Origin: Patescibacteria group bacterium
GTDB taxonomy: Bacteria > Patescibacteriota > Minisyncoccia > Minisyncoccales > JASEJS01
Reading direction: 5' to 3'
Length of the DNA: 31,721 bases
NCBI GenBank assembly: GCA_030016765.1
Contig: JASEJS010000001.1
Coordinates: 1 to 31,721, forward strand
This document shows positions 14,168 to 30,700 of the stretch, one piece after another. The position numbers were made by a program, and so were the translations under genes. The notes beneath the pieces are model-generated. The model was not told the origin of the DNA, did not search any database, and saw nothing but the letters and a program-made list of their open reading frames with translations. Position 1 is the first letter of the stretch. Each line of letters begins with the position of its first letter.

Positions 14168-15067
14168 TTATAGGAGTTTTTTAATTCCTTCTTCTAAGGA
14201 AATTTTAGCTGACCAACCAAGTACTTTTTTTACTTTAGTAGTATCTGCTAAAGTCTCTTTTACATAATTTTTAATTGGATTTTTTTGATAGACAGGCTTT
14301 ATATTTTTTCCTAAAATTTTATTCAAAATTTCAACTAATTCATTTAAGCTATAACATTTACCACTACCTAAATTAAAAATATCGCAGTCAATCTCTGAGT
14401 TCATGCCGGCAATAAAACCTCTGATGACATCATCAACATAAACAAAATCTCTGGTTTGGCTGCCATTGCCATAAATTAAAGGTCTTCTTCCTGCTTTTAT
14501 ATCCCATAAGAATTGACTACCAAGATTGGCGAAATTTTTCTTTGCTTTCTCTTTTGGCCCATAAACTGAAAATAATCTCAAGCCAATTGATTTAACTTGG
14601 TAGAAATCATAATAAAGTTTGGCCAATCTTTCCATAAGATAGCGAGCTTCGGTATAAAAATCAGTTACCTTAATTTCCATATCTTCAGAAAAGGGAAGGG
14701 GATTTCCATTATAAATAGAGGAAGAGGAAGCATAAATTAGCTTACAATTTTCTCTTTTAGCTAACTCTAAAACTTTTACAAATTCTTGAAGGGATATCCC
14801 AACTAATTCTCGATTATTTCGATACAAAGTAGTAGTTGAAGGTATTCCTAAATGAAAAATGCCATCTAAATTTTTTAATTCTTTCAATTCCAAAACTTTC
14901 ATTGCCGGAACTTCAATAAATTTTATCTTATTTTTGACATTAGAAAGATTATCTAAACTGCCAGTAGAAAGATTATCCACCACTATCACTTTGTGGCCTC
15001 TTTTAACTAAATCTTCTGCCAAGTTAGAGCCAATAAAACCTGCCCCACCAATGACTAAGTATTTCAT
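14168..15067 (-). CDS. NAD-dependent epimerase/dehydratase with YxxxR active-site variant
   Basis: VIGGAGFIG, ASSSSIY, RLFSVYGP, RDFVYV; catalytic motif reads YTEAR. Confidence 0.88.
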   Translation of the reverse strand: MKYLVIGGAGFIGSNLAEDLVKRGHKVIVVDNLSTGSLDNLSNVKNKIKFIEVPAMKVLELKELKNLDGIFHLGIPSTTTLYRNNRELVGISLQEFVKVLELAKRENCKLIYASSSSIYNGNPLPFSEDMEIKVTDFYTEARYLMERLAKLYYDFYQVKSIGLRLFSVYGPKEKAKKNFANLGSQFLWDIKAGRRPLIYGNGSQTRDFVYVDDVIRGFIAGMNSEIDCDIFNLGSGKCYSLNELVEILNKILGKNIKPVYQKNPIKNYVKETLADTTKVKKVLGWSAKISLEEGIKKLL

Positions 15068-15073
15068 ATTTCT

Positions 15074-15101
15074 ATGATAAGCAATCCCAAAAGGATGTCA
15101 A
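15074..15101 (-). promoter_or_regulatory. Sigma70-type promoter of the epimerase
   Basis: TTGACA (15101-15096), 16 nt, TATCAT (15079-15074); 6 nt to ATG. Confidence 0.65.
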
Positions 15102-15154
15102 AAAAGTTAATTTGATCCAGAAAGAGCACTAAAAAAAGAACGGACCAAATTCAC

Positions 15155-15184
15155 CAACTTAAGCAACGGCCGTTTATCGACTTG
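15155..15184. repeat. 30-bp palindromic element, copy 1
   Basis: CAACTT aagc AACGGCCGTT tatc GACTTG, 6 nt beyond the PaaX-like stop. Confidence 0.9.
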
Positions 15185-15190
15185 AAAGAT

Positions 15191-15950
15191 TTAAAGTTTT
15201 TTGTCTTTAAGGTATTTCTTTATGAGTTGATGAGCTTTTATTCCCTGCCAATTGTTTGGCAAAAGTTCTAAAGGTAATTGAGGATCTTTTCTTAAAATGT
15301 TGAAATATTTAAACAGAAGCCAAAATTTCTCCTCTTTCCCAGCTTCTTGCCATTGATCAATAAATTTAATATAAGATCGATTTATTTTCTCTAATTTCCA
15401 AATTCGATTGGCTAAAACTTTTGAGGTTTCCTTTCCCAATTTATCAGTCTGAGCCAAAATTACAAAATCTTGAAGCTGATAAAATTTAATAATCTCTTCC
15501 ACATTTCCTAAATAATTTACTGCCGAAATCCAGATGCTTTGTTGGAGCTGACCAAAACCCAATTTTTTTAAATTTTCTCTTAAGATATCTCTTTTTCTGC
15601 GCATTTTTTCTGGAATATCAAAAACAGCTAAATACCATTGACCATCCCAATGCTTTGGCGGAAAAAATTGAGGAATAAGACGAAAGATTCTTTCCTTTCC
15701 TTCTTTGGTTAAGGTAAAATCTTCTTTAATCCATCCTCGTTGTTTTCCTCGATAGATTGCGTCCCTTATTATTCTATCTTTATTAGTAAATACTAACTTA
15801 TCTAATTTAGCGAAGAGACCTCTCATTGAGTAATTTCCTGAAAGGCCAATTTCTCCCATCATTGCTAAAGTAAATAAGACCAGATCAATAGGGGGTAGCT
15901 AAAATTTCACAGCTAATTTTTAAAATTTTCTCTCTCAATTCTCTTTTCAT
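15191..15950 (-). pseudogene. PaaX-like transcriptional regulator (Cas2-like central fold), +1 frameshift in G5 run 15891-15895
   Basis: WDGQWYLAVFDIPE...LKKLGFGQLQQSIWIS and DPQLPLELLPNNWQG motifs; ATG 15950 (MKRELREKILKISCEILATP) joins the 15191..15862 frame if one base is removed, giving 252 aa; a 223-aa product from ATG 15862 remains possible. Confidence 0.78.
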
Positions 15951-15964
15951 ATCCCAAAATCTAT

Positions 15965-15994
15965 CAACTTAACAAACGGCCGTTTGCTAAGTTA
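15965..15994. repeat. 30-bp palindromic element, copy 2, over the PaaX-like promoter
   Basis: CAACTT aaca AACGGCCGTT tgct AAGTTA; adjacent to minus-strand TGa+TAGATT (15966-15958). Confidence 0.9.
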
Positions 15995-16016
15995 GTAAAT
16001 TATTATTTTAAGAATG

Positions 16017-16387
16017 TCATTTTTGTAAAAGTTGATTTAGTTTGGCTCGGGGTCATTGGACCCACAAAGCCAGTTCCCTTCTCCAGGCCCAAAGGAGCTA
16101 AAATTTCTGAAGCATATTTTTCCTGAAATCGAATAACGGCAGCTTTGGTTAAAGAAAGGAAATTTCCAGTAACCAGTCCTTCTGGATAAATCTCAGACTC
16201 CTGGGCTTTTAAAAATTTTTGGCAAGAAACTGATTTCTTTCAGCTAAAATAGTATTAATTTGAGCCTGAACTCTGGCGATTTCGGCTTTCAAATAAGTAG
16301 AATTGGTATAGCTTAAAATACCTTCACCAATTTAGAGAAGGAAATTAGTATGAGAACAATTTTTAAATTTTTTAAATTTTGATTCAA
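16017..16387 (-). pseudogene. Decayed secreted protein with peptidoglycan-binding-like domain, paralogous to the C-terminus of 18839..20563
   Basis: Hand translation [19 protein letters not shown] / [61 protein letters not shown] / [10 protein letters not shown]; two frameshifts and a 20-codon deletion; 5' boundary uncertain. Confidence 0.85.
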
Positions 16388-16440
16388 GTAATAATAGTCT
16401 AAATTAATAAAAATCTATCGCTAAATCCGACCTGTTAGAA

Positions 16441-16457
16441 ATATTTGCGTCAAATAT
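16441..16457. promoter_or_regulatory. 17-bp palindrome, possible operator
   Basis: ATATTTG-cgt-CAAATAT, perfect 7-bp arms in intergenic DNA. Confidence 0.35.
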
Positions 16458-16513
16458 AATCTACCCCAATTGCTAAAAAATAAAATGCGATCAGGCTTTT
16501 AAATTATCGTGCT

Positions 16514-18613
16514 CTATCGTATTACCATCCAGCTCCAAGTCTCAGCACCACCATCGATGGCAGCGGTGGTTGAAGCATTGACAAGTCCAATATTAATATA
16601 GCCATCAGCAGTTGAGGAAGCGTTTGCTCCATTAAAGATTAACCATCTTGTTGCCGAACCTGAAGCAAAATCATAAGGTGGAGTAACAATAACGTTTTTG
16701 TCTGTGGTTAAAACACCCGAAGCAGCACAATTGCCATAACCTTTACCATAATCAGCTGCGATAGCAGGTGGATCAACTGAGCAGGTTCCGAAAAGAACTT
16801 TGGAAATAGTTGTTCCGTCACCAACGCGAAGCTTGAAAGTAGAAGTTGTGGCACTAACAATGAGATTGTCATTTATTGATAAATCTCCAGCAGTGTTCTT
16901 AATTTCAGACTGAACATCTAAATAAGTTCCGGCTCCGCTAATGGTAGTGGTGGCAAGAGAAGTTAAACCAGAAACTGTTAAATCTTTGCTAACAGTTACA
17001 TTGCCTCCATCAGCAATGGTGAAGATTGTGGTAGCTCCATCTTTTGCTTCAAAAATGTTGCCAGTGCCGTCTTGACGAACGGTCAGAGCAGTTGATCCAG
17101 TATTAACTGTAATTTGAGTTGTAGTAGCAGTTAGAGTACCAGTTATGTCAGTAGCATCAGCAAAAGTCAGATTTCCACCCGAATCAAAGACATTTCCCTG
17201 AAGATCTGAAGTACCAGAAACCACTACATTATCATTTATTGATAAATCTCCAGCAGTATTCTTAATTTCAGACTGAACATCTAAATAAGTTCCGGCTCCG
17301 CTAATGGTAGTGGTGGCTAGATTTGTAGTACCACTAACTGAGACATTCCCTGAAGTATCAACTGTAAAATTAGATCCTCCCACAGTTAGGGAAGCTCCAG
17401 TAACATCCAGTCCAGCTGTGGCATCTACATTTTTAGCCAAAGTAATTTTCTCTCCTCCGTCAGTAGTAACTACTGTCAAATAAGAATTTGTCCCTTCTTT
17501 AATATCCAAGGCAGCTGTAACATTGTCTTTTAAAGAAAGGATAATAAGATCCCCTCCATCTCCGATAGTAGTATCTGCTCCAAAATTGAGATTACCGCCA
17601 TTGACAGTTAGATCATCAGCTAAAGTTAGACCACCTCCCGAAGTAAAGTCAGTTCCAGCTGCTCCGATGTTAAGTAAGAGATAATTTTTCATGTCTAAAT
17701 TAGAGCCAGCTCCAGCAGTAAAGACAATGTTATCAGTGCTAGCATCACCTAAAGTGGTAGTAGCTTTTACAGTAAGGCTACCGGTGATAGTTTCGTTTCC
17801 CGAAAGAATCTTGTTTCCAGAAATAGTTAAATCTCCTGAAACACTCAAATTACCAGCAGTAGTAATATTACCAGTATTTACCCCCACTACAAATTTAGTT
17901 CCTCCCACAGTGAAATCTCCTCCAGTGACATCGAGTCCAGATTGTGCATCAACATTTCCTGAAAAACTGACCTGGCCTGAACCAGTTTGAGTAATTGAGC
18001 CATCGATTTTTAAGGGATCGGAGATATAAATTAAGGGGTTTAAATTATTAGTCGAATCCATTATGATTTGATTGCCTAGCAAATGAAAACCCTTAGCTGC
18101 TGACAAAATAATGTTTCCTGAACCAAGGGTATTAATAACAAGATCATGATCTTCCTGATAGAGTCGGGAGGCTTTGATATTTCCAGTTACAACGAGATCG
18201 CCAGTTACGGTCTGATTTAAAGAAGAGGGTTGAACTTGCGGAACAGCTACCTCCGGAACGGCTTCCTTTGTCACTTCCTTTTTCTGACCATAAAGTTCAT
18301 TCAGCTTAGCTCTGGTTGAAGGACCAACATAACCAGTAGCCGAAATCCCATATTTTTCCTGAAAGCATTTAACTCCAGCTAGAGTTATTGAATAAAAATT
18401 TCCAGTATATTCTGGCCAGTCAAAACATCCCTCTTTATCTAAAACCTCCTGAAGAGCTTTTACATCTGGATCATTAGTTAAGCCATAATAAAGATCTCGC
18501 TCAAAATTATAGCTTTGAGCAAAAATTAAATTGGGAAATAAAATTAAGGATCCCAAAATTATTAAAGAAATTCTTCTCATAGATTTCAACAGCTCGCTTA
18601 TTTTTATTTTCAC
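16514..18613 (-). CDS. Secreted protein: N-terminal peptidoglycan-binding-like domain plus long Gly/Thr/Ser/Val beta-repeat stalk (adhesin/fibre-like)
   Basis: Signal peptide MRRISLIILG...LIFA (ATG 18580 likely); FERDLYYG...DVKALQ...FQEKYG...TGYVGPSTRAKLN; repeated GNVDAxxGLDVTG and GDLxVxG motifs. Confidence 0.8.
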   Translation of the reverse strand: MKIKISELLKSMRRISLIILGSLILFPNLIFAQSYNFERDLYYGLTNDPDVKALQEVLDKEGCFDWPEYTGNFYSITLAGVKCFQEKYGISATGYVGPSTRAKLNELYGQKKEVTKEAVPEVAVPQVQPSSLNQTVTGDLVVTGNIKASRLYQEDHDLVINTLGSGNIILSAAKGFHLLGNQIIMDSTNNLNPLIYISDPLKIDGSITQTGSGQVSFSGNVDAQSGLDVTGGDFTVGGTKFVVGVNTGNITTAGNLSVSGDLTISGNKILSGNETITGSLTVKATTTLGDASTDNIVFTAGAGSNLDMKNYLLLNIGAAGTDFTSGGGLTLADDLTVNGGNLNFGADTTIGDGGDLIILSLKDNVTAALDIKEGTNSYLTVVTTDGGEKITLAKNVDATAGLDVTGASLTVGGSNFTVDTSGNVSVSGTTNLATTTISGAGTYLDVQSEIKNTAGDLSINDNVVVSGTSDLQGNVFDSGGNLTFADATDITGTLTATTTQITVNTGSTALTVRQDGTGNIFEAKDGATTIFTIADGGNVTVSKDLTVSGLTSLATTTISGAGTYLDVQSEIKNTAGDLSINDNLIVSATTSTFKLRVGDGTTISKVLFGTCSVDPPAIAADYGKGYGNCAASGVLTTDKNVIVTPPYDFASGSATRWLIFNGANASSTADGYINIGLVNASTTAAIDGGAETWSWMVIR
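16869..16954. repeat. 86-bp intragenic direct repeat, copy A
   Basis: 85/86 identical to 17232..17317. Confidence 0.95.
17232..17317. repeat. 86-bp intragenic direct repeat, copy B
   Basis: Encodes ATTTISGAGTYLDVQSEIKNTAGDLSIND; 363 bp from copy A. Confidence 0.95.
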
Positions 18614-18615
18614 GA

Positions 18616-18689
18616 GGCTGTGGATAACTTTTTTCTAATTTTATTTTACCACATAATGTCAAGAAAAAAATAGGGAGTTATCCACAGCC
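18616..18689. promoter_or_regulatory. Pair of inverted consensus DnaA boxes flanking an extended -10 promoter
   Basis: GGCTGTGGATAACT (18616-18629) and AGTTATCCACAGCC (18676-18689) are exact reverse complements, each containing TTATCCACA; minus-strand TGg+TAAAAT at 18651-18643. Confidence 0.7.
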
Positions 18690-18782
18690 CCCTTTAAACC
18701 TCGATTTCCTTTTAAATAAAGTTGGAGTTTGTTCTAAATCAAAGATAACTAAATTCTTTTTAAGAAAATCCATCTTAGCCAT
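18678..18782 (-). other. 34-aa ORF, possible N-terminal remnant of a DEDD/DnaQ-like exonuclease
   Basis: MAKMDFLKKNLVIFDLEQTPTLFKRKSRFKGGCG*; LVIFDLE resembles the first DEDD motif. Confidence 0.25.
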
Positions 18783-18838
18783 ATTAAGGTTTGAGGTAAA
18801 AGGACCGGTAGCCAGTATGGTTATTAGTTTAAAGGTTT

Positions 18839-20563
18839 TTAGCTCCCAGTCTCCCAAAAACTAATAAGTTCATTAATTTTGGCTCGAGTGGCAGGACCAA
18901 CATACCCTGTTCCTCTTTTTAAACCAAGAGGGGTCAAAATTTCCGTAGCATATTTCTCTTGGAAACGAATAACAGCAGTTTGAGTTAAAGAAAGAAAATT
19001 TCCAGTTACTAGACCTTCAGGATAAATTTCTGGACCCTGGACTCTCAGAAATTCCTGAAGGCAGCGAACATCAGCATTATTCACTAAGCCGTAATAAAGA
19101 TTGTTTTCCAATTTTTGGCAGGAAATCAGCCAACCTCTTTCAGCTAAAATAGCATTGATTTGAGCCTGGAGTCGAGATATTTCTGCCTGAAGTTCAGCAA
19201 TGCGAGCTAGTAGGTTTTCGATAAGCCTTTTTTTAGCTATTTCTTCGGGTTCCTTAATTGAAGCTTGCCAAGAAAAAGAGTAGCTTGGCTCAAAGCCATT
19301 GAAACCCGAGATTTTGGTCTGAAGAGATGGAATGATGGTTAAAGAGGTATATTTTTCTCCAAAATCAGAAATGGTAATTTTGCCTTTTTGCTCTTTGTCT
19401 AGAGATAAAAAATCAATTGAACACTGCTCGGAATTTAGACAAAGAACATAGGGAACTTTAAAATTAACCTCGTCTTGGCCATCAAATTCAAGCTCTAAAA
19501 TTCCTTTGCCGCCAATGATCTTATGCCAATTGCCAGTCCAATTTGGAGTAGCATAAGTCACAGAGAGCTTTCCCTCCCCTAACATTGGAAGGAAATTAGT
19601 TGTGGGAATAACTCGGAAATCCTTTAAATTTTTATTTAAGTAGCAGTATCTCGGACCCAAAGAACAATTATTAACCAAAACAGCGATTGTCCAATCAGTA
19701 AAAATTTGAGAAAAATCTTGCTCAAAACCTCTTTTAGCTAAAGCTTCATTTATAGAAGGAATTCCAATTAAGGGAGATTTTAAAGAATCAACTAAAATTT
19801 CAACTCCATAATGATCAACTAAATATTGGATAAAAAGGTTGATCACCCCATAGTCATAACGAAGGTTTTGCCATTCGGTTAAAGAATCATAGGGCTTATC
19901 GATAAAATTATTTATTCTCATCTGAAGATTGCTACCTTCAAAAATTTGATCATAACCAAGTAAGGTTGGAGCATATTCAGATCGGGCTTCATTCAGCCAA
20001 ATTTCCTCAGAAACTTTCTGCTTTTTTTCTTTTTGATTAAAAGTAATTAAATGCAAAAACTCATGAGCTAAAGAACTTTTGATATTCGGCTTATCAAGAT
20101 GCTGAGCATTTAAATAAACCATCTCTCTTTGATTAGATTTTGGATTTTGAGCTTTAGAATACTCATCTCCTGAATTAAAATAGCCACCAGCTTCTTCAAT
20201 CATTTCATGAATTAAAATAGTAATTCTTTCATCATTATCAATTCCTGGCTTCCATTCTGAACCAAAAGTAGAAGTCAAAATCGGATAAATTTTATTTTGA
20301 AATTCATAGCCAAGATCAGTTAGAGCTTGATCAATTTTTTCTTTTTGGCTGGAGCTCAACTTCTGCCACCAGGCATCATCGATGTAAAAATAGAGATGAT
20401 CCGTAATTTTCCTCAAAGTTGCCATAAGTTGATTTCGATTTTCTATATCATAGGAAGAGTCAATGTTAAAAGTCTCCTGCTGACCTTGAATGTCGGCGTG
20501 CGCAAAAAGAGGGATTGCTAGAAATACTACTCCAATAAAAATTAGTTTAAGATTTTTAGACAT
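18839..20563 (-). CDS. Secreted zinc metallopeptidase (M30-like gluzincin) with C-terminal coiled coil and peptidoglycan-binding-like domain
   Basis: Signal peptide; GGYFNSGD, REMVYLN, AHEFLHLI (HExxH), WLNEARSE; C-terminal DVRCLQEFL...FQEKYA...GTGYVGPATRAKIN. Confidence 0.85.
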   Translation of the reverse strand: MSKNLKLIFIGVVFLAIPLFAHADIQGQQETFNIDSSYDIENRNQLMATLRKITDHLYFYIDDAWWQKLSSSQKEKIDQALTDLGYEFQNKIYPILTSTFGSEWKPGIDNDERITILIHEMIEEAGGYFNSGDEYSKAQNPKSNQREMVYLNAQHLDKPNIKSSLAHEFLHLITFNQKEKKQKVSEEIWLNEARSEYAPTLLGYDQIFEGSNLQMRINNFIDKPYDSLTEWQNLRYDYGVINLFIQYLVDHYGVEILVDSLKSPLIGIPSINEALAKRGFEQDFSQIFTDWTIAVLVNNCSLGPRYCYLNKNLKDFRVIPTTNFLPMLGEGKLSVTYATPNWTGNWHKIIGGKGILELEFDGQDEVNFKVPYVLCLNSEQCSIDFLSLDKEQKGKITISDFGEKYTSLTIIPSLQTKISGFNGFEPSYSFSWQASIKEPEEIAKKRLIENLLARIAELQAEISRLQAQINAILAERGWLISCQKLENNLYYGLVNNADVRCLQEFLRVQGPEIYPEGLVTGNFLSLTQTAVIRFQEKYATEILTPLGLKRGTGYVGPATRAKINELISFWETGS

Positions 20564-20579
20564 TCTTTTTTATTTCTAC

Positions 20580-20608
20580 ATTATAACCAAATATTAAAAT
20601 TAAAACAA
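20580..20608 (-). promoter_or_regulatory. Probable sigma70 promoter of the peptidase
   Basis: TTGTTT (20608-20603), 17 nt, TATAAT (20585-20580). Confidence 0.5.
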
Positions 20609-20653
20609 CTTTCAGCGTTTTATCAGCATTTATATCAACGTCATCTCAGCGAA

Positions 20654-20687
20654 CCGAAAACCGCTCCATTAAGGAGCGGCTTTTCGG
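20654..20687 (-). terminator. Intrinsic terminator-like hairpin after the S-layer-like gene
   Basis: Minus strand CCGAAAAGCCGCTCC-ttaat-GGAGCGGTTTTCGG, 39 nt downstream of stop. Confidence 0.75.
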
Positions 20688-20726
20688 TGTCCACAAGGAA
20701 AGACAAAAATTAAATCGATTAGTAGC

Positions 20727-23700
20727 TTATTCGCTGAGAGTTTTACCAGTTAAAGGCAGTTCCTTAACTTTGTAGGCATTGGTGTATTTCTTTCCATCAT
20801 ACCAGCACCAATCCCAATCCCTTTGACAAGAGGTATTACTCACCAAGCTGGTGTCATTATCTTTGGTAACATCCAAGTGGTAGGCAAAGTCATCAGTAGC
20901 ATTGGTGGTATCAGCTTTGATGGTAAAGGTTACAGTATCGCCTGCAGAAATGGGATAGTCAGTAATATCAAGCTTGAACTGATAGCCAGATTTGTAACCA
21001 GAGGGTGCAATGGTAATTCCCTGAGCTCCGGAAGGAGTATTGACCGTGGTATTTAGGCTGATGGTGTCACCAGTGGTACTAGCATAATCAACCACCGCGT
21101 CTGAAACATCGGTATCAGTCTCTAAATCAATATCCACTATTTCTCCCACCTGGAAGTAATCAGCAGCAACCTTTCCGGCTGGAAGAGCTCCAAACACATT
21201 ACCTAGATCAATATATTGATCAGCGGTAGTGGTAGAGAAAGTATCACTCGTAGTAGTCATCGCAGCATTTAAGATGCTAACGTTCAAACTTCCATCTGGA
21301 TTGTAGAAGTGAATACCATCTCCTCCAGTGACATCGCCATTCATGTAAGGCTTAACAGTGATCACAGCCAAATCAACATCTCCAGCATTAGCCTTTACAG
21401 TGAATTTAAGAACAGGGGTCTTTGCACCAGGTAACAAAGTACCAGAAGGAGTATCAGCAGCAAGATTGATAGTGGGAACACTCTTTCTCAAAATCTGAGC
21501 ATTTCCAACTATTTCAGTCCAACCTGAGCCATCCTCATCTGCTACTGTAACAGTCTGGCTAGATGCTGCTCCTTTTGCCACAATGCTGTCAGTGGTGGAA
21601 GCATGAATTCCAAATTTTGCTGCATGGCCGCTGAATGCTCCAGCATCAATACCATTAATTTTAACTCTTAGAGCAAACTCAGCAACAGTATTTTTGGCAA
21701 TCACTGGGGGTTCAACAAAGGTAAAGGTAAAGAAGGCATTACCATTACCAACAGTTTCAGGATAGGCAACTGGACCAACTGCGCTTCCAGCAAGATAAAC
21801 CTGGGCGCTGGCAAAATCGGATGTGGTCACATTAGTAGTACCTCCACTTTCATCAACCACATCAAAGACCAAATTTGCAATCATTACACCTTCATTTATT
21901 GCTTTTGCCTTCCACTTTAGCACATCTACTTCAGCTCCAGTGGTTCCTAGAGCATGGATTGCCTCTCCTGGAGTGTAGGTCGACTTGGTCCAGACATAAA
22001 GCTGACCAGTCTGACTAAAGGTCATTGCCTTACCCCAGCCGCTGCCAGTTGAGCTGATATCCTTTCCTGAACTCACACCGATTCCTCTCACATCTCCATC
22101 AGCTGCGATTCCAAAGTAGTAATTATTGGCAGTATCATAATCAGCAACTTTCACTTTCACATCAATGGCAGCAGTGGTTCCTTTGGCAATAGTTAGATTC
22201 TCGATGTTCTTGAATTCACAGTAATCCCCTGAAGCACCATCAACTAATGAAGTTATTGTGCTTCCAATCTGAGTTGCTCCTTTGTAGAGTCTCAGATTAG
22301 CCACCTTAGTGCTCGCCGGACTTGCACCAGCTGCAGTGCTTGTTGCTACATTAAGCTTCAAGTAAGTTACTTTCACATCTTCAGCAGGACCTGCTTTGAG
22401 ATAAATGGTAGCAACATGGGCATCAGTTTCGCCTTTAATGTAGGTTGAGGCAACTGGAGTATCAGCAATATTAACAGTAAGAGAACCTTCAACAATGGTT
22501 ACAGCTAAAGGAATTGCCTGGACTGGGAAGGTGCCACCAGCAGCAATGGTTTCTGCAGAGGTTACTCCTTTGACAGTGAGATCTGAAGCTGCATTAATTT
22601 CAAACCGATGGGTCTCTCCGGTTGATTGAACACTAATTCCAGTGTCAACATCAGCTTTAACAGTTAAGGTCTTTACTCTCCCAGCTGGAATGGTCCAGTT
22701 TGGATAGAAAGTGGCTGTACCACCACCACTGACAGGAGTAAATTCATTTACAGTAGCCCCAAGTTTAGTCTCACCATCAAAGATCTCGATGCTACTTAGA
22801 TCAGAGGCAATGGCATTGGTACCAGTAGCATCTTTGATGGTAATCTTTGAGATCAGAACATCCTCACCTGAACCAGCAGTAAAGGTGAATTTAGCAAAAA
22901 CAAAATCTTCAGTACCAGGGCTGACATTGGTCAAACTAATTCCAGTTGCATCAACAGACAAAGTGCCTTTATCTAAAACCTTGTGCTCGGAAACTTCACC
23001 AATGGTGTCCACAGCACTAATGTCGATCTGATCAAGCGGAACTTCAATATCAGACTCTAGGCCCTTCATCGTTAGGTCGGTCTTAGCATTAATGTAAAGA
23101 CCTGCCTGATGATCTTTAACAGCAGCTCCAGAAATGTCTCCTTTTAAGACCAAGGTCTTATTTTGTCCTTTGGGAATGTCAAAGGTTGGAGAGAAGATTA
23201 AAGTTACTACACCAGAAGAGAAACTGGCTGGACCAGCTACAACATTATCACCAACATAAGCCTTGATGTTGGAAAGCTCAGTGTCAGTGATCACAGTACC
23301 AGCGCTGGCAGCTTTAGTGAACTTTATCCTCTCAATCTTCACTCCTTCCATAGAGCCGCTGGTAGAGAATCTATAAGCTCCCCAGACTCTCTGCTTTGAA
23401 CCTTTGACATATTCTGCGTCAGAAGGATTAAGAGTTGGATCAAGGGTTACCTTCAGCTGACCGGTCTTAAAGGTGACTTCGTAACCAGCACTAACTGGCC
23501 AGCTGGAAGCCTTGACCTCAAGGAATCCTCCTGAGCTCTGACCAAGAATAGAAACATCGTCTGCCTCGTCAATGACAAAATAAGCAGTATCACCAGCATC
23601 TACTGCTACATCAGCTTTAATGTCAGCATAGACTGAGATGTCTTCATAGCTTGATTTTAGAATTCTGACATTGGCTTTGCTTAGATCAAAAGAAGCCTGG

Positions 23701-25118
23701 GAATTAGCATCTACCTCTGGTACAGTCTCACCAACTTGGGCACCACCCCAGAAAAGTTTGATGTTTTTAACATCGGTGTCTGCGCAGGTTCCTTTTAGGG
23801 TAAGAGTTAAATTGGTCAATTGAGCACTCTCTGTGTCATCCACCTGAAATCTGAAAGTATTCAAGAGCTGTTCAGTAGCACCAATAAGAACATAAGTATC
23901 TCCAGGAGTGGCATCGGTGGTGGTTGCTTTACCAGCAGAGAGAGAGGCCACAGTCTTGGCGTATCCATAAAGAGGAAATTCACCAGTAATGGCTTCTGTA
24001 GCCACAATATGTCCAGCTTCCGCAATTCCCAGTTTGATGGTGTTTCCAGGATCAGCATTGGTCCTGTCAATGGTTCCCTTAATGGTTAAAACTCTGCTCT
24101 CGCCAACTGGAATGGTCCAGTTTAGACCAGAGAAAGTCGCTGAATGAGTGGAAACATTAAGAACCTGGGTTGCGCCAAGCTTGATGGTTCCATCGTAAAG
24201 CTTGATGTTAGTTACATCATTATCTTCAGACACACCGCTCCGGGTCACAGTGATGCTAGAAATAGTCAAATCTTTGGCGGCAGCAGTGAATTTAATCTTG
24301 GTAAAGATTAAATCCTGCGCACCTTTTGCTACTACCGCAGCAGCTGGAGTATCCGGGGCTAAACTAGCAGTAGGCTCTTTAGGAACAACTTTTTCTTTTT
24401 CATTACAAGCTTCATCATACCAATAATAACCTACGGCAGTACATTCAGCCTTAGTAGTTATTTCTGCTGCTGATTTCTTGACACAACTTCCTTCTACGCA
24501 TTTATAACCGGTATCACAGTCAGCATCAGTTTGGCATTTTTTTGGTGAAGGTGCGACAGCTAAGAGGCTATTCAACTTAGCTCTGGTTTTTGCTCCAACA
24601 AAACCAGTTCCAGCTGTCAAGCCAATTGGGGTCAAGACATCAGCTGCATATTTCTCCTGGAATTTAATAACTGCCGCCTTGGTCAAAGGACCAAAGTAGG
24701 TAGTTTCATTGCCAGGAGAACCTGGACCTTCAGAAGATACCTGAGTGGCGGAATCTGAGTTTAAAACAATCTGTAAACATTTAACATCATCTCCAATCAT
24801 TCCTTGCTTTAGATCGCGATCAAAAGAAGTAATGGTGCAACCTGTTATAGCAGGACCTGCTGGCGCTTTTCCAGCTTGAAGTTTAACCAATTGCTGTTGA
24901 AGAGCAGTTAAGGTAGCAGTTAAATCAGCAACCTGAGCTTGGAGAGCTTCTACCTGATTATCATAACAAGTATCTTTGTACCAATAATAACCTGCTGCCT
25001 TACAGTCTGATTCTGTGGCTTTATTAGCTACTACTGCCGCTGTTGCTAGACTAACCAGAATAACACTCAAAGCCAAACCACCAATTACACCTACAATCCT
25101 TTTTACTAAACCAGACAT
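20727..25118 (-). CDS. Large S-layer-like/cell-surface protein (1463 aa): Cys-rich motifs, peptidoglycan-binding-like domain, about 7 beta-sandwich repeats
   Basis: Signal peptide; coiled coil; FDRDLKQG...DDVKCLQ...FGPLTKAAVIKFQEKY...TGFVGAKTRAKLN; repeated units xG...FxF.A..EDV.I..I...IKLYDG..KLG...TIPxG..KTLTVKAD; visibly higher GC than the glycan locus. Confidence 0.85.
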   Translation of the reverse strand: MSGLVKRIVGVIGGLALSVILVSLATAAVVANKATESDCKAAGYYWYKDTCYDNQVEALQAQVADLTATLTALQQQLVKLQAGKAPAGPAITGCTITSFDRDLKQGMIGDDVKCLQIVLNSDSATQVSSEGPGSPGNETTYFGPLTKAAVIKFQEKYAADVLTPIGLTAGTGFVGAKTRAKLNSLLAVAPSPKKCQTDADCDTGYKCVEGSCVKKSAAEITTKAECTAVGYYWYDEACNEKEKVVPKEPTASLAPDTPAAAVVAKGAQDLIFTKIKFTAAAKDLTISSITVTRSGVSEDNDVTNIKLYDGTIKLGATQVLNVSTHSATFSGLNWTIPVGESRVLTIKGTIDRTNADPGNTIKLGIAEAGHIVATEAITGEFPLYGYAKTVASLSAGKATTTDATPGDTYVLIGATEQLLNTFRFQVDDTESAQLTNLTLTLKGTCADTDVKNIKLFWGGAQVGETVPEVDANSQASFDLSKANVRILKSSYEDISVYADIKADVAVDAGDTAYFVIDEADDVSILGQSSGGFLEVKASSWPVSAGYEVTFKTGQLKVTLDPTLNPSDAEYVKGSKQRVWGAYRFSTSGSMEGVKIERIKFTKAASAGTVITDTELSNIKAYVGDNVVAGPASFSSGVVTLIFSPTFDIPKGQNKTLVLKGDISGAAVKDHQAGLYINAKTDLTMKGLESDIEVPLDQIDISAVDTIGEVSEHKVLDKGTLSVDATGISLTNVSPGTEDFVFAKFTFTAGSGEDVLISKITIKDATGTNAIASDLSSIEIFDGETKLGATVNEFTPVSGGGTATFYPNWTIPAGRVKTLTVKADVDTGISVQSTGETHRFEINAASDLTVKGVTSAETIAAGGTFPVQAIPLAVTIVEGSLTVNIADTPVASTYIKGETDAHVATIYLKAGPAEDVKVTYLKLNVATSTAAGASPASTKVANLRLYKGATQIGSTITSLVDGASGDYCEFKNIENLTIAKGTTAAIDVKVKVADYDTANNYYFGIAADGDVRGIGVSSGKDISSTGSGWGKAMTFSQTGQLYVWTKSTYTPGEAIHALGTTGAEVDVLKWKAKAINEGVMIANLVFDVVDESGGTTNVTTSDFASAQVYLAGSAVGPVAYPETVGNGNAFFTFTFVEPPVIAKNTVAEFALRVKINGIDAGAFSGHAAKFGIHASTTDSIVAKGAASSQTVTVADEDGSGWTEIVGNAQILRKSVPTINLAADTPSGTLLPGAKTPVLKFTVKANAGDVDLAVITVKPYMNGDVTGGDGIHFYNPDGSLNVSILNAAMTTTSDTFSTTTADQYIDLGNVFGALPAGKVAADYFQVGEIVDIDLETDTDVSDAVVDYASTTGDTISLNTTVNTPSGAQGITIAPSGYKSGYQFKLDITDYPISAGDTVTFTIKADTTNATDDFAYHLDVTKDNDTSLVSNTSCQRDWDWCWYDGKKYTNAYKVKELPLTGKTLSE

Positions 25119-25140
25119 TTAATAATCAGTAATTATTAAT

Positions 25141-25320
25141 TAATATTTATTTCTGTCGCGTCGACCTTTATTTCGCGACTTCGCGCCATCCGCGCCTCAT
25201 ATTATCCTTAAATTGCGAAGGCAATTTAAGAAATATTCATTCGGCGCGGTGTCGCTTCTCTCCAAAATTGCTTCGCAATTTTGGAGACCTCATATTTTAG
25301 GCCACGAAACCGCGACTCTC
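25141..25320 (-). ncRNA. Candidate structured 5' leader or cis-regulatory element
   Basis: Two perfect hairpins (25207-25230, 25259-25287) among GC-rich CGCG motifs in an AT-rich spacer; no family assignment possible by eye. Confidence 0.35.
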
Positions 25321-25324
25321 TTCA

Positions 25325-25573
25325 TTATTTCTTTTTCATCGCTAAAATTTTTTCAATTTCTTCAACCCGGGCTTTTAACTCCTCAAATTCGTTTCGATAA
25401 ACTATACCTTCTAACTTTTTTTCTATTCTCTTTAATCTTTCACTATGATCTACTAACATTACTGCGTGTTTATCCAATATGCCTAAAATCTGCCGATGCT
25501 GTTCGGTATTCTCATTAAAACCTTTGGCAATCATCCCAGCTAAATCTTCTAAGGTAATTTTTTTCTTCGCCAT
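25325..25573 (-). CDS. Small coiled-coil hypothetical protein
   Basis: 82 aa, ATG 1 nt after upstream stop; heptad-like RLKRIEKKLE...ELKARVEEIEKIL. Confidence 0.75.
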   Translation of the reverse strand: MAKKKITLEDLAGMIAKGFNENTEQHRQILGILDKHAVMLVDHSERLKRIEKKLEGIVYRNEFEELKARVEEIEKILAMKKK

Positions 25574-25574
25574 A

Positions 25575-26282
25575 TTATTTATTTTGACTCAAAATCCAGA
25601 TTTTTTCCAGGGCTTCAGAATACTTTCCAGCCTGATAAAGTTCTTTCGCCTCTTCTAAAATTTTTTGATCTTCTTCAGAAAGGGTTCTTTTTTCTAAGTC
25701 TTCGATGAGGACTTCGGCTGGAGTTTTATATAATCCTTGAACAGAATCGCCTTCTTTTTCAGAATCTATTTTTGTTGCCAAAACTTTTTCTACTTTTTGT
25801 TTATTTTCTTCCAATTTTTTAATTTCAACTACTACCTCTTTAGCTTTTTCAGGTTCTTTTATTTTCTCAAGGCTCTTGGCAGCTTCTGAAACATTAGTTT
25901 GATATTCTTCAACCGCTGCTGGTAATTTCCTTACCTGATTGGTTTCAGCGATTTCTGCCAATTCTTCTAATCTTTTATTAGTTAATTCTAATTGGACTTT
26001 TGGTTTTTCTGCTTCAGGAACAAAAACTGCCTGGCTCTTTTCTGTAATCTTTTTGATTGGATATAAAAAATCACCAGGTAGAGAATTTTGGCTAAAAGCG
26101 AAAAGGCCGAAAAGAATTAAAACACTAATTAAGCCAGCTTTAGCTGGCTTGAAAAACGGGAAAAATAATACTTTTGGCTCCTCACCCAAAATCTGGCTTT
26201 TAGTCAAAGCAACCCAATCTGAGCTGGGCTTAATTTGTCGCAGTTTCCGAATTTTATTAACTAACTCGGCTTCAGTCATCAC
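25575..26282 (-). CDS. DUF5667-type membrane-anchored putative anti-sigma factor
   Basis: N-terminal IRKLRQIKPSSDW, one TM segment, SQNSLPGDFLYPIKKITEK, RLEEL; downstream of an ECF sigma; ATG 26279 possible. Confidence 0.75.
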   Translation of the reverse strand: MMTEAELVNKIRKLRQIKPSSDWVALTKSQILGEEPKVLFFPFFKPAKAGLISVLILFGLFAFSQNSLPGDFLYPIKKITEKSQAVFVPEAEKPKVQLELTNKRLEELAEIAETNQVRKLPAAVEEYQTNVSEAAKSLEKIKEPEKAKEVVVEIKKLEENKQKVEKVLATKIDSEKEGDSVQGLYKTPAEVLIEDLEKRTLSEEDQKILEEAKELYQAGKYSEALEKIWILSQNK

Positions 26283-26341
26283 TATAACTATGACGAAAAA
26301 CTCCCCAAAATATTACACTAATAAAGGAAAAATAAATTCAC

Positions 26342-26371
26342 CAACTTTATCAACGGCCGTTTGCCAAGTTG
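26342..26371. repeat. 30-bp palindromic element, copy 3
   Basis: CAACTT tatc AACGGCCGTT tgcc AAGTTG; symmetry extends to ATTCA...TGAAT (26336-26377). Confidence 0.9.
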
Positions 26372-26407
26372 ATGAATATTTAAAGAGGAATACCTCTACT
26401 CAAACTC

Positions 26408-26450
26408 TACTCGAAACCCGACGTTGAGTATTCGAAACCCGCGTTGAGTA
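26408..26450. repeat. Two overlapping copies of a 22-23 bp hairpin element
   Basis: TACTCGAAACCCGACGTTGAGTA (26408-26430) and TATTCGAAACCCGCGTTGAGTA (26429-26450); partial copy at 26397-26405. Confidence 0.85.
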
Positions 26451-26458
26451 AACTAGGC

Positions 26459-26992
26459 TTAAACATCTTGATTGAGTTTATTTTTTAAAATTTTCAAGGC
26501 TCGATGGAGCATTACCCTCGCTGTCTCTTCGGATTTATTTAACATTTTAGCTATTTCAGAGATAGAAAGGTCGTCTAAGTAGTGCCAAATAATTACATTC
26601 TGATATTCTTCTTTGAGATTAGCCAAAGCGGTTTTAATATTCTCAACCTCTGAGTTTACTGCTGCTTTTTCCTCTAAATTTGTTTTCGGATCAATAATTT
26701 TCACTTGGTCAGCTGAAATTATCTGGGTTTTACCCTTTTTTCGATAATAATCAATAACTAAATTCCGGGCAATTTGATATAAAAAAGCCTGGAGATTTTC
26801 AATTTCTTTTTGATTTTTGATTTTTGATTTTTGATTTTTATAGGCCTCCCAGCCCTTTAAAAAAGTTTCTGAAGTTAAATCTTCAGCTATTTCTTGGGAA
26901 TTGACCTTTAAAAAAATAAAACGATATATTTTATCTATATACTGATCGTAAATTTTGCCAAATTCTTTTCTCCAGCGATTTGTCATAAGCAC
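26459..26992 (-). CDS. ECF-type RNA polymerase sigma factor
   Basis: IYDQYIDKIYRFIFLKVNSQEIAEDLTSETFLKGW, FLYQIARNLVIDYYRK, LSISEIAKMLNKSEETARVMLHRALKIL; ATG 26986 likely. Confidence 0.93.
   Translation of the reverse strand: MLMTNRWRKEFGKIYDQYIDKIYRFIFLKVNSQEIAEDLTSETFLKGWEAYKNQKSKIKNQKEIENLQAFLYQIARNLVIDYYRKKGKTQIISADQVKIIDPKTNLEEKAAVNSEVENIKTALANLKEEYQNVIIWHYLDDLSISEIAKMLNKSEETARVMLHRALKILKNKLNQDV
26807..26834. repeat. Perfect (TTTTTGA)4 array inside the ECF sigma gene
   Basis: Four exact units; encodes KNQKSKIKNQK within sigma region 2. Confidence 0.95.
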
Positions 26993-27701: not shown

Positions 27702-30700
27702 TTATTCCCAAGTTAAATCATGGCTGGCAAAAAACTTTAAATCCTCTCCTTCATAATAGATAAAGAGATATCCTTTTTTGGGTTGATTGGTTTTAATTCC
27801 AGAAATTATGGGATAAAAGGACCAGAGAGAATTAGGGAAATTCTGGTCATTAATTGCCTCTAAACTTTCAATTGATTGCCATGCATCTGTATATTTTCTG
27901 AGATAAATATGCCATTTGTCATCTGACTTAGAGAAACGAGAGCAGACTACATAAATATGGCCATTAGCATCTAAGGCAATTGAAGGAAAGGCTATGGTAG
28001 TGTCAATGTCTGATTCCAAAATCTGGTATCTTTCACTCCAAGAATTAGTATACTTTTTATATGAAATATGGCAACCACACTGCTCCTCCCAAACCACATG
28101 CAAATGACCATCCTTATCTATAGCAATTGAAGCTCTAGACCCGTTACCCAATTCTTCAGAGCTTGTGCTTGTTTGCCTCCAATATTTAATTTTAAGTGAA
28201 AGTGACTCACGCCCTACATCACTACACCAAACCAAATGAATATTGTCTTCACTATCAATAGCCATTGAAAAATGACCTATCCCTCTTCCACCACCAACCG
28301 GTAAATCTATTTCCTCAAAATAACTCAAATTGTTGTTATATTTTCGATATCGAGGCTTAGGACAAGGAAAAGAACCTAATTCGTGACTAGAAGAACATAA
28401 TTTTTTATCCACCCAAACCAGGTGGATATTATCAGCAGAATCTAAGGCAATTATCGGACTTTCTTGATCCCAATTCTCATTATCTGTGAGATTTTTAATT
28501 TCCGACCAAGTTCCATTATATCTCCGATAGCGGATTTGATAAGGACCATTAGCTGAAATTTTTCCCATCCAAACTAAATGAAGATTATCATTTGAATCAA
28601 TGGCAATTGAAGGATATATTTGGTTATAGCTGGATTCAGAAGTTATTACTTCTTTTGTCCAACTTTTTCCTTCATCAATTGATTTAGCCAAAAAGACATT
28701 ATATATTCCTTCAATTTGTTTAGCATAAACCACATATAAATTTCCATTTGAGGCCCTAACCATTTTTCTACCCTCGGTTCCAGGCGGTAAAGAGGGATCT
28801 AAGGTAAAGCCACTCTCAATAGTACTAATAGTTGCTGTTTGATAGGAAATAATATCAGAAAGTAAAGAATAATGCCAGCCATCAAAAGCTTCAATGCCAA
28901 AATGATAAGTAGAATTGTAATCAAGGTTAGAAATAGTCAGGGTAGTGGCTGAGGTAGTAGCAGAGAAAGTGGAAGAAGAATTTAAATTATCTTCAGTAAT
29001 CTCCTCTTTTGAATAATAAATTTGGTAAGAGAGATTTTCTGGAGGAGTATCTGGGTCAGTAGTAGTTGACCAAGTTAAAACTACTTTATTATTTTCTGAA
29101 TTTTCCTCATCTATTTTGAAATCAGAAACTTTTTCTGGTCGGAAAATGTCGGCTTTTTCTCCTTTTGAATTTTCCGGCAAGGGAATTTTGAGCTCAAAAT
29201 CAGTTGAATTGTTATCATCATCAATATAAAAACCTTCTTTGTTTTTCTTTCTTTGCAATGATTTTTCGACTAAATCACTTTCCTTAAACAAAAATGAACT
29301 TCCTTCAAAAACTAAAGTACTAGTTGAATTTTCTTCTCTCCAGCTGAAAAGGTCAATTTTGCATCCAATAGCCGCCTCAGTGGTGCTAGCTGAAGGATTG
29401 CAAGAAAAAATGCCAATGGCTCCAGTTTTATTATTTAGATTAGTGGAAACAGAAGGTTGCCAATCTGGTTCGGGATAACCTTCTTCAACTGAGTAATCTT
29501 TTAAACCAATAAGAAAATAAGTTGAGGAAGCTATAGTTGTAGTTGGAAACTGTATATTTATCCGCCAGGGATTATTCCAATCATGCTTCGCCGGAAAATA
29601 ACTCAAATACCAACCGGCAGTAGAAACAGATTGATCAGTTGGATTATAAAGCTCTACAAATTCATTCTTTTTAATTTGAACTTCAGAGATGATTACATTT
29701 TGGGCTAATTGGTGAGCCTTTACTTCAATTGTGCTGGTGGTGGTGCTGGTTGCTCCCTGATTATCTTGCACTACAAGTCGAACCAAATACTCGAAACCCG
29801 ACGTCGAGTAAGAATGAGCAGTTGTGGCCTGAGTAGTAGTGGTGGAATTACCATCGCCGAAATCCCAGATGTAGCCGGTAATGGTTCCATCTCGGTCAAT
29901 AGATGAAGAGGCATCAAAAAAAATTTCATCACCAATAAATGGATTTTGAGGAGAGAAAGTAAAAGAGGCAATCGGCAGTTGATTCTCTGGCTCCACTTTT
30001 GGTTTATTTTTTGCCTTAGGGGTTGGCTCCTGAATTTCAAAATCTTCTCTATTGTTATCAGTATCAATATAACTTTCGCTAGTAGTGGACCATTTTCTGC
30101 CTATACTTTCGCCAGCTTTAGGATTTGAAGTGGTGGCAGTTTCATAATCTTGAGCCTCTCCCCAGCTAACTTTATCAACAACCTCTCCATTTGGATTTTT
30201 TAAGTAAAGAGTATTATCTGAAGTAAGAGGGTGGGTAGTGGTAGCATCAGCTGAAAAGGTAGAGGAGGCATTGGCAATCAGAAAATAATCATGTTTTTTA
30301 ATTATTTTGCCAGAAAATAAATTTTTTGGAGCATAAGAGGAAAAATCGCTACCAGTTTTTGTTTTCCTCTGAAGGTACCAATTAGTCAAATCAACATCTT
30401 CTGAATTTGGATTATAAAGCTCAACAAAATCATCTTTTTCACTGGTCTGGCTTTCAATTTGAATTTCGGAGATTAAAATTTTTAGATAAGAAGGGGTTGG
30501 CGGTTCCTCGGGTGGTGGGGAAGACACTCCCCCTCCGCCACCATAATATTCAACATATCCTCCGCTATTTTCTGCTTTTGGTGTGCCTCCTGGATTAGCG
30601 CTGGTTTGCCAACTCAAATCATTCCTCCTTTCTGCTGTTCTTTTTGAATTATTATCCCCAGCTAGCCAATTAGGAGAGGCTATGACTTCATCTTGAAGCT

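Follow-up and report, generated by a model that had tools for sequence, protein, structure and literature searches.

A PaaX-fold gene and its probable cognate palindrome form one of ten palindrome-gene modules in a Patescibacteria genome

A 31,721-nt stretch of DNA from a Patescibacteria group bacterium (GenBank assembly GCA_030016765.1, contig JASEJS010000001.1, positions 1 to 31,721; the window hereafter, meaning the whole stretch) encodes a protein of the PaaX fold in a gene that lies between two copies of a palindrome. The palindrome, 30 bp long and extended to about 46 bp, is probably the cognate DNA site of this protein, with which the copies on the two sides of the gene (copies 1 and 2) would make up a single palindrome-gene-palindrome module. 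The module is one of ten in the genome and a member of a phylum-wide class in ultra-small genomes of the Candidate Phyla Radiation (CPR)/Patescibacteria type. The window belongs to contig C7 of a 754-kb genome with 33% GC, which is assembled into 105 contigs and 93.6% complete. A preliminary description of the window had pointed to the palindromes and offered two models, in which they are either operators of a PaaX-like repressor (Model A) or parts of a unit akin to repetitive extragenic palindromes (REPs) and their REP-associated tyrosine transposases (RAYTs) (Model B).

The palindrome, here named family A, was searched in the window as CAACTT-N4-AACGGCCGTT-N4-AAGTTG with at most 3 mismatches and with 100 dinucleotide-preserving shuffles as control. 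Exactly three sites were found, at 15155-15184 (2 mismatches), 15965-15994 (1 mismatch) and 26342-26371 (no mismatch), and none of the 100 shuffled windows contained any match (chance expectation 0). The three copies that had been reported at 15155, 15965 and 26342 are thereby borne out, and their described positions relative to the adjacent genes proved correct on remeasurement. Copy 1 has a degenerate right arm (GACTTG) and follows the stop codon (15191-15193) of the minus-strand PaaX-like gene at a distance of 6 nt; its centre is about 100 nt upstream of a promoter-like site of the epimerase gene. Copy 2 is located 14 nt upstream of the ancestral ATG at 15950, directly downstream of a promoter-like -10 element and 8 nt past the stop of an open reading frame (ORF) fragment with a peptidoglycan (PG)-binding domain. 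Copy 3 is a solo copy in the 176-nt gap between an extracytoplasmic function (ECF) sigma gene (26459-26992) and the DUF5667 gene (25575-26282, start 26282) that had been described as anti-sigma-like. It stands upstream of the DUF5667 gene at a distance of 60 nt and follows the stop (26459) of the sigma gene after 88 nt. The upstream sequence said to be common to copies 1 and 3 was recovered as AAATTCAC. The genome-wide motif scan proposed in the preliminary description brings the total to six copies, three in the window and three on other contigs, all of which are intergenic, and AACGGCCGTT occurs in the genome only within the full motif. One of the additional copies lies on contig C24 about 97 nt upstream of a promoter, identified by eye, of a 56-aa ORF, one between two convergent stop codons (C22:7096) and one at the end of contig C39. 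Alignment of the copies shows that the palindrome spans about 46 bp and is thus wider than 30 bp (AAATyyAyC-AACTT...AAGTT-GaTrAATTT). The exact motif had no match in 40 other genomes of the same order. Searches of wider collections returned a single match among genome contigs (Albimonas, presumably by chance) and none among metagenome contigs.

The link between gene and palindrome extends far beyond the window. The genome encodes ten paralogs with a PaaX_M domain, each with its own palindrome family (28-46 bp, GC-rich centre) at the gene ends. Six of the ten are bracketed on both sides, and the remainder lie at contig ends or are matched on one side only. Of the 6 evaluable paralogs, 5 had matching flanks (at least 19/24), compared to 32 among 570 other ORFs (p 3e-6). 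Similar bracketing was observed for about 17 of 27 units in a survey of 15 other genomes of the same order, and for 13 of 27 units in a phylum-wide sample (p 5e-10). The proposed check of whether each paralog is flanked by its own palindrome gave a positive result for 10/10 paralogs here and for many units elsewhere. PaaX_M genes are present phylum-wide in 75 of 301 genomes, with 1-12 copies each. The five nearest homologs of the window gene that were fetched are all palindrome-bracketed and represent the full-length, PaaX_C-bearing subfamily, in which a CGGCCG core is conserved. The closest homolog (P0001, 68% identity) shares the identical AAACGGCCGTTT core, flanked by AACT/AGTT arms, and a second one (L017, 49% identity) has bracketing palindromes with a AAACGGTCGTTT core. 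The core of these two closest homologs, AAACGG(C/T)CGTTT, is the same as in the window or nearly so, which upholds the earlier view that the palindrome is tied specifically to the PaaX-like gene. The palindromes of P0002, P0004 and P0005 are likewise centred on CGGCCG. On the protein tree, palindrome centre type requires 15 changes compared to 19.9 in shuffles, with 0 of 200 shuffles as low. Bracketing in paralogs and homologs, together with the clustering of centre types on the tree, indicates that the association of gene and site is specific and inherited.

The paralogs of this genome represent old lineages that are interleaved with the paralogs of other genomes, and no two gene copies are identical. 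At the nucleotide level, similarity between genomes does not extend beyond the gene. The divergence of the PaaX proteins was not clearly below that of uvrC (53-63% identical in the same genomes), and a case for horizontal gene transfer based on similarity was therefore dropped. Genome G022 carries two units with 88% identity, and their similarity stops where the downstream palindrome has its outer edge, which hints at duplication of the unit as a block. The relative orientation of the flanking copies is not fixed (13 direct, 15 inverted, 11 equal). A consistently inverted arrangement, as around RAYTs, holds for families E and G of this genome and was rejected as a general rule.

The PaaX-fold gene occupies 15191..15950 on the minus strand and is disrupted in this assembly. 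The ORF spans 15191-15862, and the ancestral ATG at 15950 is in another frame due to a 1-nt insertion. Translation and comparison with homologs place the frameshift at a C5 homopolymer (15891..15895, minus; G5 on the plus strand). In P0001, which is intact and 68% identical, the run is C4 in place of C5, and the intact homolog L090 reads ACTACCCCTATCGAT at this position. The first approximately 20 codons of the window gene are in the other frame, and L017 and P0001 show that the upstream frame encodes the true N-terminus. The frameshift may reflect an assembly error or genuine inactivation. With a frameshifted gene in this assembly, the module may be decaying.

The window ORF matches the Pfam models PaaX_M (1.7e-24) and PaaX_C (1.9e-9), and the N-terminal Pfam PaaX model had no match to it at an E-value of 0.01. 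The encoded protein has the domain layout of a winged helix, a Cas2-like PaaX_M middle domain and PaaX_C, and matches E. coli PaaX (8A39) at 5e-9 in phmmer. An AlphaFold2 model was built from an alignment of 73 homologs (predicted local distance difference test, pLDDT, 91.8). The top Foldseek matches of the model were 8A39 (E 2.2e-10, 234 columns) and 3KFW (2.5e-7), followed by Cas2 and VapD. The model matches 8A39 and Rv0674 over the full length, and its middle domain matches Cas2 and VapD with template modelling (TM) scores of up to about 0.6 on the target. The protein scores 87.2 bits against the PaaX equivalog TIGR02277, below the cut-off of 264.55, and 22.6 bits against TIGR01573, just below the cut-off of 24.5. 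The Cas2-type Asp of strand beta1 (D93 in FDIPE) is invariant in the 73 homologs, and E. coli PaaX reads SEGLDK at the same place. A hydrophobic stretch at the N-terminus of the mini forms was considered as a membrane anchor, but was judged by eye more likely to be helix 1 of the PaaX N-domain. PaaA/PaaC (PF05138) were not found in the 93.6%-complete genome, in line with the earlier statement on the absence of phenylacetate genes, which is hereby extended genome-wide for PaaA/PaaC. Cas1 (PF01867) was not found in the genome, and the window showed no CRISPR array. The neighbors of the window gene are epimerase and surface-protein genes. Genes of this type should be annotated neither as phenylacetate regulators nor as Cas2.

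The sequence of family A is informative about how the site might be read. All 8 spacer columns vary among the copies compared to 4 of the 22 columns in the blocks (p 8e-5), and the spacers are unpaired in half of the copies. Covariation (0.109) is below the mean of shuffles (0.140). Folding of the copies as single-stranded DNA (ssDNA) yields energies ranging from -0.8 kcal/mol for copy 1, which forms no hairpin (z +0.96), to -7.7 kcal/mol. Searches of the palindrome against Rfam and tRNA models produced no match. Conserved symmetric blocks about one helical turn apart and free spacers fit a protein dimer on duplex DNA. A hairpin or terminator reading of family A was rejected given the lack of covariation, the weak folds, the unfolded copy 1 and the absence of Rfam or tRNA matches.

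The proposed mechanism would start with dimerization of the protein via its Cas2-like middle domain. The dimer would read symmetric duplex blocks, comprising the outer arms CAACTT/AAGTTG about 12 bp to each side of the dyad and the GC core. A sigma-70-like promoter candidate on the minus strand (16002..16029, with -35 to -10 read from 16029 to 16002; TTTACA-16-AATAAT, 10/12 positions) would, by consensus match alone, give a transcript in which copy 2 spans about +1 to +30. Such a position at the gene's own predicted promoter, just downstream of the -10, suggests that binding to the upstream copy could cause autorepression. The copy abutting the stop codon might mark the 3' boundary of the module, with looping, insulation or the end of the unit as possible roles. 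The site of canonical PaaX is TGATTC-N27-GAATCA, and the E. coli protein recognizes an inverted repeat of 39 bp and acts as a repressor of its own promoter (PMC9493321).

Palindromes of this class are not restricted to the ends of the paralogous genes. A census of all families in this genome covers 60 sites and is based on crude ORF calls. Sites flanking paralogs account for 14, tandem gaps for 22, where the palindrome often occupies the whole stop-to-start gap, convergent gaps for 3, divergent gaps for 2 and contig ends for 4, and a further 15 fall inside crude ORFs. Copy numbers range from 4 to 15 per family. Similarity among copies ends sharply at the edges of an element of 36-46 bp. Both pth (peptidyl-tRNA hydrolase; C83:391) and dinB (DNA polymerase IV; C24:4162) contain a clean 12-residue in-frame insert relative to solved homologs exactly at the palindrome, encoded by 36-bp palindromes of the GCCATGGC and ACGGCCGT families. 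In ksgA, miaB and uvrC, a palindrome is also in frame within the gene, but the alignments show no clean length difference and only pth and dinB count as proven inserts. Genome G040, which has no Y1 match, carries 11 copies of the palindrome of its unit, 7 of which are identical over 24 nt. Sites of this class are thus copied to new places in the manner of REP elements. Given such copying, the copy in the sigma/anti-sigma gap and the three copies on other contigs are best understood as dispersed solo copies, which may be bound by the protein.

The same genome contains two genes encoding Y1_Tnp domains with repeats of their own, and the bracket scan recovers both. The IS200/RAYT-like gene at C101:5096-5898 is flanked by inverted copies of a 23-bp element, TAYTCRAAACCCGACRTYGAGTA, and hence looks like a genuine REP/RAYT pair. 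This element has 12 genomic copies. Two of the 12 are in the window, at 26408 and 29788 (29788-29810), with a further, degenerate copy at 26429; these window copies are in an intergenic spacer and inside a PKD domain. The second gene (C5:2895-3602; 235 aa, PF01797 5e-12) scored 20/24 in the scan and has its own palindrome, GGAACGAGAAC(G)GTTCTCGTTC, on both sides; no further copies of this palindrome were found in the genome. The 26408/26429 pair (26408-26451) adjoins palindrome copy 3 at a distance of 37 nt. The gap between the sigma and DUF5667 genes therefore collects small repeats of two unrelated kinds, which argues for copy 3 as a dispersed solo copy rather than a purpose-built operator. 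Among 41 genomes of the same order, 12 encode both PaaX_M and Y1_Tnp, 4 only PaaX_M, 9 only Y1_Tnp and 16 neither (Fisher p 0.025), an association overstated by the relatedness of the genomes. Some lineages may tolerate small repeats of both kinds.

Several observations weigh against the reading of the palindrome as the cognate site of the protein in a module of a REP-like class. Autorepression does not account for the copy at the stop codon, which is found in almost every unit. Promoter-like matches in the region of copy 2 are no more common than in shuffles. The window gene is frameshifted, such that its protein is perhaps not produced. The six copies of family A all lie between genes, and the REP-like nature of the family is deduced from its sister families. 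The palindromes of other families are near-perfect and compatible with an RNA or ssDNA hairpin.

An extension of the cognate-site reading, which does not exclude it, holds that the PaaX/Cas2-fold protein itself copies or moves its palindrome, perhaps with the whole unit, as a non-HUH analogue of RAYTs. We consider this rather unlikely. The general form of the idea is considered similarly unlikely, namely that mini-PaaX proteins (Cas2-fold/winged-helix) recognize and propagate their own 36-46-bp palindromes, and perhaps their own gene, without an HUH transposase. The REP/RAYT-like architecture, in which each gene has its own palindrome class and dispersed solo copies, would be explained, as would the recovery by the same scan of the two Y1_Tnp genes flanked by their own repeats. 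The clean 36-bp in-frame inserts in pth and dinB, the 11 copies (7 identical) in G040 where no Y1_Tnp is detectable and the 88% identity of the G022 units up to the outer palindrome edge point in the same direction. A patchy distribution (0-12 copies per genome, 75/301 genomes) and the frequent breaks of contigs at units are also consistent with mobility. The invariance of D93 in the homologs, in contrast to E. coli PaaX, leaves room for an enzymatic role. To our knowledge, however, PaaX-fold proteins have no known nuclease or strand-transfer activity, and the catalytic Asp of Cas2 is dispensable in its best-known role. Propagation by the protein is further at odds with the lack of an orientation rule for the flanking copies, the old and interleaved paralogs without any two identical gene copies in the genome and the low copy numbers of each family. 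Neither a target-site duplication nor an empty site was seen, in genomes that offered no strain-level comparison. Model B of the preliminary description fits the architecture and the dispersal; movement by the protein, and travel of the gene along with its palindromes, would be conjectural, and the flanking copies keep to no inverted orientation.

If the palindrome was instead an ordinary operator and nothing more, the six family-A sites would constitute a regulon of the gene itself, the epimerase, the DUF5667/anti-sigma gene and others, coordinating glycan and surface expression. The intergenic location of all six copies fits such a regulon, and five of the six lie upstream of some gene on the matching strand. 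Conserved blocks with drifting spacers are as expected for selected binding sites, and a long palindromic operator is known from the repressor PaaX. The positions of the sites relative to promoter-like elements are inconsistent though (+1..+30, about -100, about -97, about -45, a convergent gap and a contig end), with one site between two convergent stops, and the neighboring genes share no common function. The motif occurs in no other searched genome or metagenome contig apart from the presumed chance match in Albimonas, sister families insert into coding sequences and the sigma/DUF5667 gap behaves as a landing site holding two copies of an unrelated REP-like element. A regulon of this kind is improbable, and Model A, which linked the epimerase, the anti-sigma gene and glycan and surface loci, is not upheld in light of the erratic promoter positions, the lack of a neighbor theme and the intragenic or convergent sister copies. 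Even less credible, to the point of being highly improbable, is a reading of the palindromes as hairpin elements that have nothing to do with the PaaX-like protein, either REPs moved in trans by Y1 transposases or RNA terminators or stabilizers. The genome does have two Y1_Tnp genes, PaaX_M and Y1_Tnp co-occur above chance (12/16 vs 9/25, p 0.025), many sites are a few nucleotides past stop codons as for REPs and terminators and copy 2 was flagged as terminator-like in a promoter/terminator scan. Yet the Y1 genes have their own, different flanking repeats, and four PaaX_M genomes have no Y1 match. Among the latter is G040 with its 11 palindrome copies, which weakens mobilization by Y1 transposases in trans and indicates that dispersal does not require Y1 genes. 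The type of palindrome goes with the protein clade and has been kept among orthologous units, and family A has no covariation, unpaired spacers, one copy that cannot fold and no Rfam family.

Read as a protein with a cognate and dispersed site, the system joins two known kinds, namely a PaaX-type binder that regulates its own gene and a repeat of REP-like nature that has a partner gene. One of the closest known systems is PaaX (PDB 8A39, 3L09; TIGR02277; Pfam PaaX, PaaX_M, PaaX_C), a repressor that responds to phenylacetyl-CoA in E. coli and Pseudomonas, with a three-domain fold in common. The long inverted repeat at the promoter of PaaX resembles copy 2 at the predicted +1..+30 of the window gene in position. 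In contrast to PaaX, the window protein is compact (about 252 aa vs 316), scores well below the equivalog cut-off (87 vs 264.55 bits), comes from a genome without detected paa genes and retains the Cas2-type Asp (FDIPE) where E. coli has SEGLDK. The window gene also has a site on both sides, with ten paralogs in a 0.75-Mb genome and sites that are dispersed and also found within genes. REP and REPIN elements with RAYT genes (Nunvar 2010; Bertels and Rainey 2011, PMC3116915; PMC3337134; PMC3733652) resemble the modules in that a single-copy gene stands between short palindromes of its own class, one genome contains several gene/palindrome classes and solo copies are found in short intergenic gaps just past stop codons. 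The bona fide Y1_Tnp gene of this genome shows the same layout. The partner protein differs, as it has a PaaX/Cas2 fold and is not an HUH Y1 transposase. The PaaX-linked palindromes also lack a GTAG/CGTC tag and an inverted-orientation rule, have low copy numbers (4-15 per family) and, in the case of family A, do not form a stable hairpin.

A further parallel is provided by Rickettsia palindromic elements (RPEs), reportedly described by Ogata and colleagues in 2000 as selfish palindromic repeats inserted in frame in protein-coding genes. RPEs are 100-150 bp long, and we know of no cognate protein gene for them. The sister families here similarly form clean in-frame inserts of 12 codons each in pth and dinB. 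Unlike RPEs, the elements measure 36-46 bp and go with one paralogous gene each, and family A has no intragenic copy. The middle domain of the window protein has the fold of Cas2 with its beta1 Asp and also resembles VapD in structure, but is fused to a winged helix and PaaX_C in a genome without detected Cas1 and a window without a visible CRISPR array. No published description of an arrangement of a PaaX-type gene with palindromes was found in full-text literature searches on PaaX, the Cas2-like fold and CPR/Patescibacteria, in agreement with the preliminary description, which knew of none.

Genomes of CPR/Patescibacteria are tiny and encode few regulators, and this one spends ten genes and about 60 sites on one protein/palindrome design. 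One or more such genes occur in about a quarter of the genomes sampled in the phylum. Should the proteins do no more than bind, they would constitute a large natural set of co-evolving protein-DNA specificity pairs on a Cas2 fold. Such a set could help in learning how Cas2-fold proteins read sequence and could provide orthogonal repressor/operator parts. If the proteins also propagate their sites, they would represent a new type of intragenomic replicator, comparable to REP/RAYT with an unrelated protein. Propagation would also account for the short inserts found in frame in conserved CPR proteins and for many assembly breaks in metagenome-assembled genomes of CPR. The modules would then be a second, independent symbiosis of REPs with a partner, widespread in CPR and able to write 12 codons into essential genes.

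A number of additional features were noted in the surroundings of the palindromes. The epimerase gene has a near-consensus promoter-like sequence (TTGACA-16-TATCAT; window 15067-15101, minus), the -10 of which ends 6 nt before the ATG, such that the mRNA would be leaderless or nearly so. Upstream of the PaaX-like gene, a 78-codon stop-to-stop frame without an ATG, GTG or TTG start (window 16003-16239, minus) resembles the N-terminal PG_binding_1 module of the neighboring 699-aa surface protein and is probably a gene fragment. On contig C24, the interval between murG and gltX contains an ORF of about 56 aa that is not annotated (C24:14300-14490; L002:6300-6490, minus) and has a strong AGGAGG site and a promoter-like TTGACA-18-TACTAT. 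The family-A palindrome on this contig is located about 45 nt upstream of the -35 of this ORF. The bracket and palindrome scans also recovered a 24-mer, CACTTTTTATATTGAGTTGCCAAT, at the ends of two adjacent genes (C23:500-3800) and a GC-rich perfect palindrome, TAATCCCGCCCTCTGCAGAGGGCGGGATTA, near two contig starts (C36:24, C64:84).

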